The notes beneath the pieces are model-generated. The model was not told the DNA's origin. It saw only the letters and a program-made list of their open reading frames with translations, and searched no databases. A program made the position numbers and the translations under genes. Positions 11,761 through 59,730 of a stretch of 64,000 nucleotides of DNA are shown here, piece after piece. The number at the start of each line of letters is the position of its first letter. Positions within the stretch are counted from its first letter, which is position 1. The DNA is from Octopus vulgaris (taxonomy: Eukaryota): positions 3,596,001 to 3,660,000 of the forward strand of contig OX597842.1 in NCBI GenBank assembly GCA_951406725.2, in the 5' to 3' direction.

Positions 11761-12190
11761 GCAATCAGAGATAGAAACATAGGTAATGAATGTATATACA
11801 TATTTCAAGACTTATTGCTCTTTCATCAGCACCACATCAAACCCATCAACCATCCATGAACACATTACTAAATTTAGAGGTATAACACTATCTGAACGAC
11901 CAAATTAAATATTAAACACATTCCTGGCAACTTTACATACATATTAAATGCTGGCAAAGAAACCGTATTTCGTTTTGGATGCATAATATACTACCAAGTA
12001 TATTAAAGACTTACAAGTCAATATTGAGCCTTGCTCTATAGATTTCAGAAAATAGGTAATGAGTGTATACGTTACAGCACTAAACTTGTTCGTGGATAAT
12101 TGATGAGTTGCGTGTGGTACTGATGAAAGAGCAATAACTCTTGAAATATGCATATACAGTCTTTACCTACTTAGTTATCTTCAATCGCAT
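11761..12190. mobile_element. Foldback element with ~95-bp inverted arms, each carrying a hammerhead motif (PLE-derived)
   Basis: 12116-12160 (+) reads CTGATGA-AAGAG-caataa-CTCTT-GAAA-TATGCATAT-A; an inverted, diverged copy lies at 11789-11833 (-). Confidence 0.7.
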
Positions 12191-13629
12191 TCTTTGCATA
12201 GTCTATTCGATTACAAAATGTCGTAACTTGCTGCGCTGGTTCTGAATTCTATAGAGAATCTATAAACTTAATAGTGAGAAAATCGCATTGCTAACACAAG
12301 AGCAAGGCAAATTATTGACTCGTCGACCTTTAATATACTTCGTAATATATCATGGTTTCAAGATGGAATACAGCGTCCTTGCAAGCAATTAATAGATTTA
12401 CTTGTCTAAAACGATTGTGTTGCAGTTATGCTGAGACAGAACCTGAAGTTCAAGTCTTTTACATGGAATATATCGATATCCAGAATGTTGATTGGTGAAT
12501 ATATTATCGATCTGGTAAGATGTGCGACTCTAGAAAAGGGTCAGGAAGGAAACTGGGATGGTCAGAAGAACTGGTTAGTACCAGTATGAGGTATTTCTGT
12601 CCAAATGCATCGGTTATACAACACACACACACACACACACACTTATATACATACATACGTATATACATACACATATATATATATATATATATATACACAC
12701 ATACATTGCATACTTTTGCAATACGACATACTTAGACGCAAATACGCGATATATATACATACCCCCACTCATATATATACACCTATATGTACGCATATAT
12801 ATAGACCACACACATGCATTATACATATATATATATATATACATACACACATCTACATTTTCACTTTTTCACAAACACACACACGCATATATACCAATAT
12901 ATATATATATGTACTCCAACGCATATACATATACACCTACATATTCATGTACACACATACATACATACATACATACATACATACATACATACATACATAC
13001 ATACATACATACATACATACATACATACATACATATACATACATACACACACATACATACATACATACATACATACACACATACATACATACATACATAC
13101 ATACATACATACATACATACATACATACATACATACACACATACACGCACACACACACACACACACACATACACACACACGCACACACGCACACACCACT
13201 CACCCATATATTATGCATATTTCTGTAAACAATCTGACATTCTGGAATGACCGAATACTATGTCTTGCCTGCCTGTCTGCATCACACACAATGTCCCCCC
13301 CCCCCCCACACCTGACCCCCGACCCCACCCGCCTCCGACCTCATTTGCATAAAGCGTCTGTGGGCCGAGGCGTGAGGCAGAGTTTCATTGTTTTGGCAGT
13401 CACGCAAGCGCCCCCTATATCACTGACACAGTTCAGGAAGTACAACGGACAATTTTCACGAGATCAGCATCATCATCATCATCACCATCATCATCAACAA
13501 CAACAACAACAACAACTACAACAACAACAACAACAACAACAACAACAGCCACAACAATAACAATAAAACTGTGATTAAATATTAAAATAAAACAAACACA
13601 GGACTAGCAAAAAAATATACATAAAAATG

Positions 13630-14455
13630 CGTTTGGTGTATGTATATGTATGTGTATATGTATGTATGAATATGTCTGTGTGTGTTATGGTATATGTATG
13701 TTTACATGTGTGCGTGTATGTACGTGCGTATATTTGTATATATGCATGTATTTGTGTCTGTATTTGTGCATATGTGTGTATGTGAATATGTGTGTATATG
13801 TGGGTATATGCATGTATGTGTGTGTATAAGTGGGTGTATTTTTGTATGCATTTGTGTGTGTTTGTATATGTGTGTTTATGCTTATATTTGTGTATATGTT
13901 TGTATACATGCATATGCATTTGTGCCAGCATTTTTGTGTCTGTTTGTATGCATTTGCTTGTATATATGTGCATGTGTATATAATTGTGTATATGTATATA
14001 TTTGTATATGTTTGTATATATATGTGCATATATGTGTATATATCTTTGTCAATTTGTGTGTACGTATGTATATGTGTAAATGTATGTGTATGTGTCCATT
14101 TGTGCGTAAATGTATATATGTATATATGTTTGTGTGTATATGTGTATTTGTTTGCATGTATTTGAGTGTCTGTTTCTACACACATGTGTGTATGCTTTTG
14201 TGTATGTATATGTGTGTATATATGTGTATGTATGCGCATGTGTGTGTGTCATTGTGTGTATATTTGTCCATGTGTATATGTGCATATATGCGCATATTTG
14301 TATGTCCGTGTGTAGGTGTGTATATGTCTGGATGTACATAAGTTTGTATACGTACGTGAGCGTGTGTGTGTGTATGTGTGCGTGTGTGTGTATGTATGTG
14401 TGTGTGTGTATGTGTGTGTGTGTGTGCGTGTGTGTGTGTATGTGTTGATGTGTGT
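13630..14455. repeat. Degenerate (TG/TA)n low-complexity tract
   Basis: Direct reading. Confidence 0.9.
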
Positions 14456-14613
14456 TGCACCAATAAAAAGGTGTCTGTTCTATGATAATCCGCCACCCAA
14501 ACCGGTACCGCCGCTAGTGGCCTCTCTACCTTCTATACCTCTCACGCCCAGTACCATCATTAATACCACCACCACCACTACTACCACTACCACCACTACT
14601 ACCACTACCACCA

Positions 14614-16128
14614 CGTATGCTGACACGGTTCTACCACGTCTTAGTTCGCGTGGGATGCCGCTCGAGACTCCCAGTTTCCGCAGTAATAGCTCTAGAGACA
14701 TTCCATACAGAAGAGACGAGGAGAGGACACCATTGGTGGACTGAGCGGATGATGCTGAAAGGCTCCGATAGGTAACCATTCACTCGAACTACAGACCAGA
14801 TGTCGCTGTACATTGCCGTCAGAATAGCCGCCAAATATTAGTGGTCGACCCTATCGATTGATCTAATTTGATCAGAGCTCCACCCAAGTTAGCATACACA
14901 CACGCACACACACACACACACACACACACACACACACACATTGCTTAGCCTGTGTATGAAGTGTTGCTTGAGGTGGTCGTGGATGGATTTGCTTGAAATG
15001 CCGCATGTTTGGGCATCAGGAATCAGTTCCTCAGCGATAAGCGACAACCTCTTCACAAGCACCATGGGCCAAAATTTTGATGTTTAGGTTCAGCAGCGTT
15101 ACGGGCCGAACATATTCTATTTATTCCCCCTTATTTGGGTCCTTTCTCAGCAGTGCCACCGCTCCTCCACTCACAGAACTAGGAAATCTCCCGTTCTGCT
15201 GCCAGTAGCTATCTGCTAAAAGGCCGTCAAAAAAAAGTCTGTCAGACCATCCAAACCAGGCGATTTACTCCTTGTGCAGCCCATCATCGCATCCCGTATT
15301 TCTGCAGCTGCTATCAGCCTTTCACAGCGCCCACCACCACTACCACCACCTGCCGAGAGCCGTGCCATGCCGTCGAGATAGGCACTTAAGTCCATCCTGC
15401 GTTCCGGACCGACATTCGTCTCAAAGAGCTGGACAAAGTGCCGCTGAAACGCCGCACAAATCTGCTCTGGCTCAAGTACCGTACGCCCACTTTGGTCCAC
15501 CAAAGACTGAACTGGGGCTTTGTCACTGGGACCCCTCGAGTGGCTTTAGTTCCCTCATTTGTTAGACAATGCATCCTTTGTGCTTAACCTTGAAGTATTG
15601 GTGCAGAATCAATCATGCCGCCAGCGCGTCGGTCGCAATGTCTCTTCTGAACACCTCTTCTAAATTCCTAACTAGGTTTCCCTCTATTATATTTTTTTCT
15701 ATCGCTAGTGCCTTGCTAAACCTAATCAATTCTATTGTTATTGCCCTTTTCAGGGCGTACTACCATTTGTTGTTGAGGATTAACCCACGTTAACGCCTGC
15801 TAATCCGGTCTCTGTAAGCTTATGTGTTCAGCTTCCAGTAACCGGGCCCCTGCCCACAAAGTCTATCTAAATCCACTGTACAGATCACAAATTTGTGGCC
15901 TGTGTAGCTGACAATTTTAAGGAGTCGACAACTTATACTATCCTTATCTATTGGCCTACAGAATATTCTATCCAGATACGCCCTGGATGACCCAATGCAG
16001 TTAGACCAGGGTCGATGCTGGCACATCCGGGAAATTCAGACAGTACCCGCCAGACAGTTGAAATCGTCCGAGCAGGTTTACGTGGCTTTTGCACCCACTT
16101 CTGCTATCCGCTAGTCCCACATGGTCCA
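14614..16128 (-). pseudogene. Tx1/L1-like LINE ORF2 remnant (AP endonuclease end through reverse transcriptase)
   Basis: YLDRIFC...GPGYWKLN (endonuclease end), SKSPGLDGL, VRVNGYLSEPFSIIRSVHQWCPL (VRQGCPL-like) and VSAY, truncated at the YADD position. Many frameshifts; (CA)n insertion at 14895-14940. Confidence 0.85.
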
Positions 16129-58180: not shown

Positions 58181-59044
58181 ATATATATATATATATATAT
58201 ATATATATATATATATATATATATATGTATGTATATATGTATGTATGTATGTATGTATGTATGTATGTATGTATGTATGTATGCATGTATGTATGTATGT
58301 ATGTATGTATGTATGTATGTATGTATGTATGTATGTATGTATGTATGTATGTATGTATGTATGTATGTATGTATGTATGTGTGTATGTATGTATGTATGT
58401 ATGTTTGTATCAAACTAATATAAACTTCACTTTGCAATGTATTACCAAAAAGGAGAATTATAATTGTCACTAGAGTTTTGGAAAACACATACATTACTAG
58501 AAATAAGAGATAAAATGCTCTAAGGCCGTAGTTAACGCACATGTATGAAGGTATATACACTAACAGGGACCACAATTGACCGAAAAATGCCGATTCAGAA
58601 TTCTTTATAATGTCGGTGTTTCCTAAAACCCTAGTCACATTTAGTGACTTATTTTTAAGTCGCATATTCATCTGAATAGTTAAGTTACGCGAGTGTAAAC
58701 GGACTAATATTTGGTCAAACAGTAGAGAACAAGCACGAACACAAACACACACACAAACACACACACACACACATATATGTATCCCTTCGGGTTGTCCCGA
58801 GTCTATAGTAAAAGAATCTTGACCAAGGTGCCTCGCTGTGGGGCTGAACCCGGAACCACGTGGTTCGGAAGCAAGCTTCTTACCGCACAGTCACGCCTGC
58901 GCCTGTACACACAGCTACGCCTGCGCATATATATATATACATACATATTCACATACATAAGCACACTTATATACACACACACACACACTCACACATGCAT
59001 ATATACATACATGCATACATACATATATACATATCTCTTTTACT

Positions 59045-59470
59045 CTTTTATTCTTTTACTTGTTTCAGTCATTTGACTGCGGCCATGCTGGAGTACCACT
59101 TTTAATCGAGCAAATCGACCCGGGACTTATTCTTTTGTAAGCCCAGTACTTATTCTATCAGTCTCTTTTGCAGAACCGCTAAGTAACGGGGACATAAACA
59201 CACCAGCATCGGTTGTCAAGCAATGCTAGGGGGACAAACACAGACACACAAACATGCACACGCATATATATATATATATATATATATATATATATATATA
59301 TATATATACGACGGGATTCTTTCAGTTTCCGTCTACCAAATCCACTCACAAGGCTTTGGTCGGCCCGAGGCTATAGTAGAAGACACTTGCCCAAGATGCC
59401 CCGTAGTGGGACTGAACCCGGGACCATGTGGTTGGTAAACAAGCTACTTACACACAGCCACTCCTGCGCC
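59045..59470 (-). mobile_element. SINE family A, full length, with an expanded internal (TA)n
   Basis: Reverse complement of 44690-45085; another diverged copy at 59845-60218. Confidence 0.9.
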
Positions 59471-59491
59471 TACATATATATATATATATAC

Positions 59492-59730
59492 TTTATTTAA
59501 AAGCAGCAGAAAATTCAACAAAACCTGTTACTCTGAGTTTCACGTTCCCGTTCGTCGGACAGTTTTTGCAAGATTCTAGCAAAAACTGTCCGACGAACGG
59601 GAACGTGAAACTCAGAGTAACAGATTTTGTTGAATTTTCTGCTGCTTTAAATAAAGCATATTACTCTACCACTGGTATTTGAGTCCTCTTTTTTCCACCT
59701 TGTTTCACATTTCTGTGTTTACTTCGGTAC
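59492..59730. mobile_element. Near-perfect foldback (~78-bp arms, 9-nt loop) with two variant hammerheads, between (TA)n tracts
   Basis: CTGT-CCGACGA-ACG-ggaa-CGT-GAAACTC-a-GAGT-A-ACAG at 59586-59623 (+) and 59525-59562 (-). Confidence 0.85.

Follow-up and report, generated by a model that had tools for sequence, protein, structure and literature searches.

Palindromic foldbacks in a 64,000-nucleotide stretch of the Octopus vulgaris genome (GenBank assembly GCA_951406725.2, contig OX597842.1, forward strand, positions 3,596,001–3,660,000; hereafter, the window) are, we are confident, insertion stumps of Penelope-like elements (PLEs), that is, truncated 3′ ends of such elements joined back to back. 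The explanation that best fits them as a whole is probably that each palindrome records one insertion of a Hydra-clade PLE, or of a derivative of one, in which both nicked target strands primed synthesis, the complementary DNAs (cDNAs) stopped early and only the 3′ ends survived. The evidence comprises identity of the arms to a PLE pseudo-long terminal repeat (pLTR), fixed outer ends, variable centres, outward polarity, the pairing of a tail with a short end, and a continuum to copies bearing open reading frames (ORFs).

The window is set in a 2.8-Gb, 227-contig genome, rich in microsatellites and in one abundant short interspersed nuclear element-like repeat. An initial annotation had listed five palindromic elements (here A to E), and self-BLAST of the repeat-masked window recovered the inverted arms of all of them: E at 59491–59656 (96% identity), D at 20641–20837 (88%), C at 20129–20327 (86%) and 20039–20073/20424–20458 (94%), B at 17900–18013 (86%) and A at 11722–11862/12087–12226 (79%). 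No near inverted match was found in 20 block-shuffles of the window. As first described, the left arm is on the minus strand and the right arm on the plus strand in 5/5, with 3′ ends outward; one arm extends further in every case, and four of the five adjoin (TA)n, (TG)n or (TATG)n. Element A ends outside (TA)n, and it is not the 430-bp unit originally proposed, its arms actually spanning about 11655–12038 and 12071–12394. The elements exist but are not all unrelated, since B (17836–18013) and D (20636–20913) belong to one family. Two larger foldbacks of the same kind, G (24373–24760) and F (57384–58182), had been overlooked. Each family has two fixed outer ends, 70–140 nt apart, which we call ‘tail’ and ‘short’, and the features of the window are as follows.

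Element A, left arm: 11655–12038, minus strand; nearly one whole ~425-bp unit of the non-autonomous tandem family A; outer end is the short end of the unit; type I hammerhead core at 11829.
Element A, right arm: 12071–12394, plus strand; 3′ half of the unit, with hammerhead core boxes at 12120 and decayed stems, continuing for ~130 bp into the following unit (tail end).
Element B (family B/D), left arm: 17836–17951, minus strand; ~72-bp tail; truncated 3′ of the hammerhead core.
Element B, right arm: 17948–18013, plus strand; short end; GAAA half of the hammerhead only.
Element C, left arm: 20036–20246, minus strand; short end in (TA)n; core of a complete type I hammerhead at 20153, with GUA as the cleavage triplet and a long stem II.
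Element C, right arm: 20249–20558, plus strand; ~105-bp tail ending in (TA)n; hammerhead 3′ half replaced by an insert at about 20323–20422.
Element D (family B/D), left arm: 20636–20741, minus strand; short end at (TG)n; has the two core boxes of the hammerhead.
Element D, right arm: 20744–20913, plus strand; tail; GAAA box mutated.
Element E, left arm: 59491–59573, minus strand; short end in (TA)n; U4C-variant hammerhead, core at 59558.
Element E, right arm: 59573–59728, plus strand; ~73-bp tail that runs out in (TA)n; hammerhead as in the left arm, with its core at 59590.
Foldback G: 24373–24760; tailed arm on the minus strand (24373–24610), short arm on the plus strand (24610–24760); both arms stop 3′ of the hammerhead of the family, a ~545-bp tandem unit.
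Foldback F: 57384–58182; minus arm (57384–57962) of 1.2 tandem units with short end and hammerhead core at 57586, plus arm (57983–58182) with tail; family is a ~473-bp tandem unit.
Second family-A foldback, decayed: 9230–9579; tail end on the minus strand at 9230, short end on the plus strand at 9579; no hammerhead.
Solo short-end arm, family B/D: 27080–27133, minus strand.
Solo short-end arm, family E: 35373–35449, plus strand.

No remnant of a PLE ORF was found within the window itself, and the link to PLEs comes from the 30 best genomic loci sampled for each of six families. Element E of the window (59491–59728) is, by sequence identity, the pLTR of a nearly intact PLE at locus L233. There the family-E sequence, tail included, leads directly into a 693-codon frame with reverse transcriptase (RT) motifs, followed by a GIY-YIG-type endonuclease (EN) region in another frame and a 3′ untranslated region (UTR); a partial tandem copy comes next, and the last part is a short, tail-less end within (TA)n. 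The two frames (2346–4427 and 4295–4678) are separated by one frameshift. The L233 frame has 1,101 homologues at E < 1e-10 among 7,999 scored, one of the 120 listed being a named entry (‘hypothetical protein’), and a profile built from those 120 and the query spans RT to EN in L265 and L167. Ends of family B/D likewise come after EN or RT–EN sequence (L157 and L167), those of family C lie 2.2 kb after a GIY-YIG frame (L126), and an inverted C end stands directly 5′ of a truncated EN copy in L133 and L144. Families A, F and G consist of ORF-less head-to-tail units of ~425, 473 and 545 bp, respectively, with one hammerhead each, found as monomers to partial dimers in our samples; they are likely to be non-autonomous tandem derivatives mobilised by a PLE.

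A visual match of motifs suggests that the partner of family E is a Hydra-clade PLE. That clade is defined by RWK, DKT, a CxCX5C linker, absence of a CCHH motif, a canonical hammerhead and a (TA)n target (PMC8557442). RWK and DKT (in place of DKG) can be read directly in the L233 frame; the linker is present in L266 (family E) and in the C-linked L128 and L147, its second cysteine being altered in L233; and, by inspection, there is no internal cysteine pair between the GIY and YIG-like boxes, that is, no CCHH motif. Compared by eye, the L233 RT motifs resemble the Hydra rows, not the Neptune rows, of Fig. S1 and the protein rows in the supplement of PMC8557442. Neptune was accordingly rejected as the partner clade, the published alignments fitting Hydra instead, as was a Naiad partner (N-terminal EN) for family C, where the EN frame stops once the domain is complete and has the RT-thumb linker in front of it. 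Apparent RT-like words downstream of the family-C EN, within the 2.2-kb 3′ region, found no support from Pfam or the PLE profile, and a sequence search of PDB returned nothing useful.

Two further features of these source elements were seen. The autonomous C lineage (L126:5600–6190, L147 and L153) carries an asparagine-rich insertion between RT thumb and endonuclease, resembling the N-rich inserts described for rotifer Penelopes (PMC3846280), together with a 2.2-kb AT-rich 3′ region. The 3′ UTRs of B/D and E elements (L157:7300–7650 and L233:5000–5470) hold (CA/TG/TA)-rich, microsatellite-like tracts, and judging from these sequences such elements may also spread microsatellite sequence.

We sampled family E without selecting on centre or tail by taking an exact 32-mer ending at its short end, which has 4,644 exact matches in the genome, and examining the first 100 matches listed. 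All 26 pairs closer than 5 kb were minus-then-plus, with 3′ ends outward. Their spans ran from 78 to 3,555 bp (22 distinct values, median 155), and 2/26 enclosed RT/EN sequence. In the best-hit sets of five families, an inverted arm was found at the 5′ side in 81 of 149 loci, while an inverted match at the 3′ side was found three times, short and judged to be low-complexity. Tabulating copies, arm lengths and centres across loci, as the initial annotation had advised, gave fixed outer ends and variable centres; for element D, a genome search allowing two mismatches found its centre nowhere else. Outer ends fall in dinucleotide repeats in 49/52 cases for family E, against a 17% background, and in 28/34 for C, 20/22 for D, 22/26 for F and 29/32 for G. 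The initial annotation had offered two readings, of which the first, that PLEs integrating at both ends of a (TA)n break systematically yield the foldbacks, is thus supported by the variable centres, fixed outer ends and non-random polarity, and also by the identical ends that flank ORF-bearing copies.

The two outer ends of a foldback are almost always different. One tail was paired with one short end in 25/26 pairs of the unselected E set (tail left in 13, right in 12), in 66/66 classable of the 81 best-hit foldbacks, in 24/25 classable E copies that share one centre (see below), in 9/10 classable of 14 family-A foldbacks and in all seven larger foldbacks of the window; these sample sets overlap in a few loci. 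Family C best hits carried the tail on the inverted arm in seven cases and on the main arm in four. Inspection by eye showed a small inverted motif, ACCA...TGGT, shared by tails of families E, F, G and C, which are otherwise unrelated (for example, at window positions 59657–59728, 24373–24470 and 20464–20558), and it may be a protein-recognition hairpin.

The hammerheads were also real. A type I descriptor found eight distinct cores in the window, compared with a mean of 0.03 (maximum 1) in 60 shuffles, and among its matches the stem I and stem III sequences differ between families, yet are complementary, around a common core. Complete ribozymes are in the minority: among arms of the five listed elements, only A-left, C-left and both E arms passed the descriptor. 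Element B has the 3′ half alone in each arm, in C-right an (ACT)n-rich insert has taken the place of the 3′ half, both core boxes survive in A-right and D-left although these arms do not pass the descriptor, and the arms of foldback G have no ribozyme. An Rfam scan of the window gave no hammerhead among the best 150 of 379 matches, which were dominated by microsatellite-driven microRNA (miRNA) models, and thermodynamic folding of seven ribozyme regions gave weak z-scores (6/7 not below −1) and mostly not the hammerhead fold. The cleavage site was passed on its 5′ side by 45/46 family-E arms (arms below 32 nt being invisible to this count). The ribozyme would be a passenger, carried only by those arms that extend far enough to include it.

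Several other observations concern these ribozymes. In several families, amplified subfamilies have become fixed for a U4C core (CCGANGA), which is linked to other diagnostic alleles; in the window it occurs in families E and G (59558, 59590, 24252 and 60359), and it is also found at L167:3110–3209. This variant was reported to be weak in vitro yet viable in a viroid (PMC3088659). More hammerhead-bearing repeats lie at 23151–23189 (minus strand), 24158–24299 and 60311–60445, and at 28376–28510 a CTGATGA box on the minus strand (28457) adjoins one on the plus strand (28466), back to back, the sequence beyond the two boxes being different. The C-right insert (20323–20422) is an inverted, shortened copy of a (GTA)n-rich tract at 19081–19596, ~800 bp upstream, a relationship that suggests a local template switch.

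We consider two-sided priming a likely route to the stumps. The GIY-YIG endonuclease would nick both strands of a (TA)n target; synthesis on one 3′-OH would begin at the ‘tail’ site and on the other at the ‘short’ site, 70–140 nt apart, of template RNA left uncut at its hammerhead. Both antisense cDNAs would terminate early, in many cases at a hotspot lying immediately 5′ of the ribozyme. Their central joining would involve hardly any microhomology, or none, and a head-to-head palindrome would result once the second strands were filled in. Such a process would yield outward 3′ ends, a single tail, variable centres and a continuum to full-length copies. An Anolis PLE protein studied in vitro, predicted to act as a dimer, is reported to cut and extend both target strands, to start at two adjacent internal RNA sites bracketing the tail and to use uncleaved RNA, ribozyme cleavage being unnecessary (PMC11167929).

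An unlikely rival is self-priming, in which a single cDNA, or an antisense template, snaps back on itself so that its first arm templates the second; snap-back of an antisense template was proposed by Arkhipova in 2013 (PMC3846280). Many centres are indeed nearly symmetrical, some falling on short palindromes (CTAG, GATC or TCTAGA), inner ends are weakly coupled, and the arms of a locus share alleles. Subfamily alleles were the same in both arms at 16/16 loci for the core, 16/16 for a second site and 24/26 for a third; identity was 95.5% within loci and 93.3% between loci, and was higher within in 43/52 rows (of 54 rows, family-G L219 and L230 were dropped for mis-registered coordinates; L184 was left out as the same locus as L173). 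A copy, however, cannot hold what its template lacks. Among 23 E foldbacks, each kind of arm reached further inward equally often (9 versus 9, with 5 equal; local alignment over-extends some inner ends), so that in 9/23 the tail-less arm is the longer inward while the tail is solely on the other. L266 pairs a 3-kb tail-less arm with a short tailed one, and in family C (L112, L113 and L119) tail-only inverted pieces, which barely or never overlap the long arm, sit beside long tail-less arms. Neither arm can therefore always be a DNA copy of the other, and snap-back is contradicted as the sole route, though, given the weakly coupled inner ends, it may still operate as a minor route to symmetrical centres. 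The same 9 versus 9 count disposed of a lead/lag rule that we had considered, by which the tailed arm never reaches beyond the short arm.

The second reading of the initial annotation, non-autonomous ribozyme-tipped hairpins that are transcribed and re-inserted as a whole unit, is very unlikely. It draws on the fact that the centre of window element E recurs at 118 loci, with the same handedness and near-identical arms in 12/17 sampled shared-centre copies of the youngest E subfamily, and on the report that pLTRs suffice for mobilisation in trans (PMC3846280). Yet among 30 of the 118 loci the tail is on the right in 17, on the left in 7 and on both sides in 1 (5 unclassed), at least three subfamilies are involved, and no difference between left and right arms is common to more than two loci. 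The 118 loci stand against 4,644 exact arm matches, spans are continuous to 3.5 kb, the D centre is unique, many foldbacks have no ribozyme and many arms are too short for one. Because the tail is found on either side and in several subfamilies, the 118-locus centre looks like a recurrent junction, or hotspot, just 5′ of the ribozyme, and stumps are likely to be made anew at each jump rather than by a self-copying hairpin. It is a long shot, though a slightly better one, that a few youngest-E foldbacks became secondary masters, 240-bp hairpins with an intact hammerhead per arm that were transcribed and re-inserted whole by a Hydra-clade protein; this would explain part of the 118 loci and the 12/17 bias.

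That two independent insertions in one (TA)n tract, or later recombination, simply abut by chance is exceedingly improbable. The target repeat is shared, the families are abundant and solo arms are common, but 0/26 close pairs face inward or lie on the same strand, most arms meet within a few bases of each other and have no (TA)n in between, there is one tail per pair and the subfamily alleles match; polarity and end pairing refute it. Ordinary miniature inverted-repeat transposable elements (MITEs), DNA-transposon derivatives with long terminal inverted repeats, would also be palindromic, ORF-less and TA-flanked, but stand practically no chance given the unequal ends with one tail, variable length with 5′ truncation at variable points, solo arms, head-to-tail tandems and the identity of the sequence to the pLTR of an RT-encoding element. 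The initial annotation had named random arm polarity, or consensus sequences with DNA-transposon terminal inverted repeats and target-site duplications (ordinary MITEs), as observations that would count against it; polarity was not random, and the equal terminal inverted repeats and constant full length of a MITE were not seen.

Several points weigh against PLE stumps made by two-sided priming. The recurrence of the E centre at 118 loci is one, and the Anolis assay is another, as start sites there did not differ between strands, in a different clade (PMC11167929). There is weak coupling between the inner ends of the two arms (the median difference is 10 nt, with p 0.016 by permutation; Spearman 0.39 with p 0.07), and two independent stops would need none. 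Concordant alleles in the two arms might also reflect subfamilies that were active in separate periods, or gene conversion from one arm to the other, and an insertion may draw on one RNA or on two. The end pairing has exceptions, with tail/tail at L308, equal 11-nt partial tails at L267 and short/short in family A at L025 (the same as L323) and possibly L029; an end was unclassable in 15/81 best-hit foldbacks, and best-hit samples favour long, tailed (main) arms, except in family C. The putative clade placement comes from a motif match by eye; Pfam gave GIY-YIG matches below the curated cut-off in related copies and no RT match. No ORF colinear with families A, F or G was found, and their mobiliser is an inference.

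Elsewhere in the window lie a 63-bp near-perfect palindrome (6460–6522), a 417-bp stretch with 68-bp inverted ends (29470–29886) and short frames at 8599–8895, 15216–15545 and 21253–21700 that resemble fragments of long interspersed nuclear elements.

These findings bear on annotation, as stumps of this kind, numbering in the thousands, would be wrongly classified as MITEs or miRNA-like hairpins, and on mechanism, as the genome holds thousands of dated products relevant to how PLE inverted ends arise. In twin priming of the L1 element, the second target strand primes a second cDNA to give a 5′ inversion; that primer pairs with internal sites whose position varies, and there is no overlap between the pieces. 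In contrast, both arms of the octopus foldbacks start at fixed, nearby 3′ sites and hence overlap, which is why a palindrome is formed. The formation of PLE inverted ends was described as unresolved in PMC8557442, and the tail/short pairing, with the cases that snap-back does not explain, ties the two start sites seen in vitro (PMC11167929) to the two target strands. In the literature searched, which was thin on subscription papers, we found neither a published rule or count of tail/short pairing nor PLE twin priming.

The octopus elements share with the Hydra-clade PLEs of PMC8557442 an RT followed by a C-terminal GIY-YIG domain, RWK, DKT, CxCX5C, a canonical hammerhead near the 3′ end and (TA)n targets, and the family-E hammerhead has the same architecture as the Hydra-2_aMil motif listed there. 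They differ in that the E unit is ~3.4 kb (from the repeat period of L233) and family C is longer, with 2.2 kb of 3′ region after the EN, whereas Hydra-clade elements are given as ‘generally <3 kb’; tails are 70–140 nt rather than 30–40, most copies are reduced to their two ends, and the hammerhead sequences are other than those of Hydra-1_oBim, from an octopus (PMC8557442). Families A, F and G are like animal non-LTR retrozymes (PMC7229834; bioRxiv 10.64898/2026.07.22.740005) in being ORF-less and head-to-tail with one type I hammerhead per unit, but their units are 425–545 bp, occur in our samples as monomers to partial dimers and often have an inverted arm, compared with retrozyme repeats of 150–450 bp; the 2026 preprint derives animal non-LTR retrozymes from PLE pLTRs (bioRxiv 10.64898/2026.07.22.740005).

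The insertion architecture of PLEs, with a partial tandem (pLTR), an inverted 5′-truncated copy at the 5′ side and a tail at one end, is found here, with the partial tandem in L233 and the inverted arm in 81/149 loci. An inverted 5′-truncated copy with a tail at one end only is described in the Fig. 2 legend of Craig 2021 (PMC8557442), inverted pLTRs appear in a curation guide, and very short PLE insertions have been seen in mutation-accumulation lines. Head-to-head inverted pLTRs with central palindromes and an optional tail are reported for Penelope (Arkhipova et al. 2013, PMC3846280), and opposite-strand pairs of minimal hammerhead ribozymes 100–700 bp apart for Schistosoma (Cervera and de la Peña 2014, PMC4209133). 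The geometry and ribozyme arrangement of the octopus foldbacks are the same as in these two reports, which give examples, while here the tail/short pairing is counted and self-priming is weighed against that count; the architecture is thus already published, and what is added here is further families and the counted pairing of one tail with one short end.

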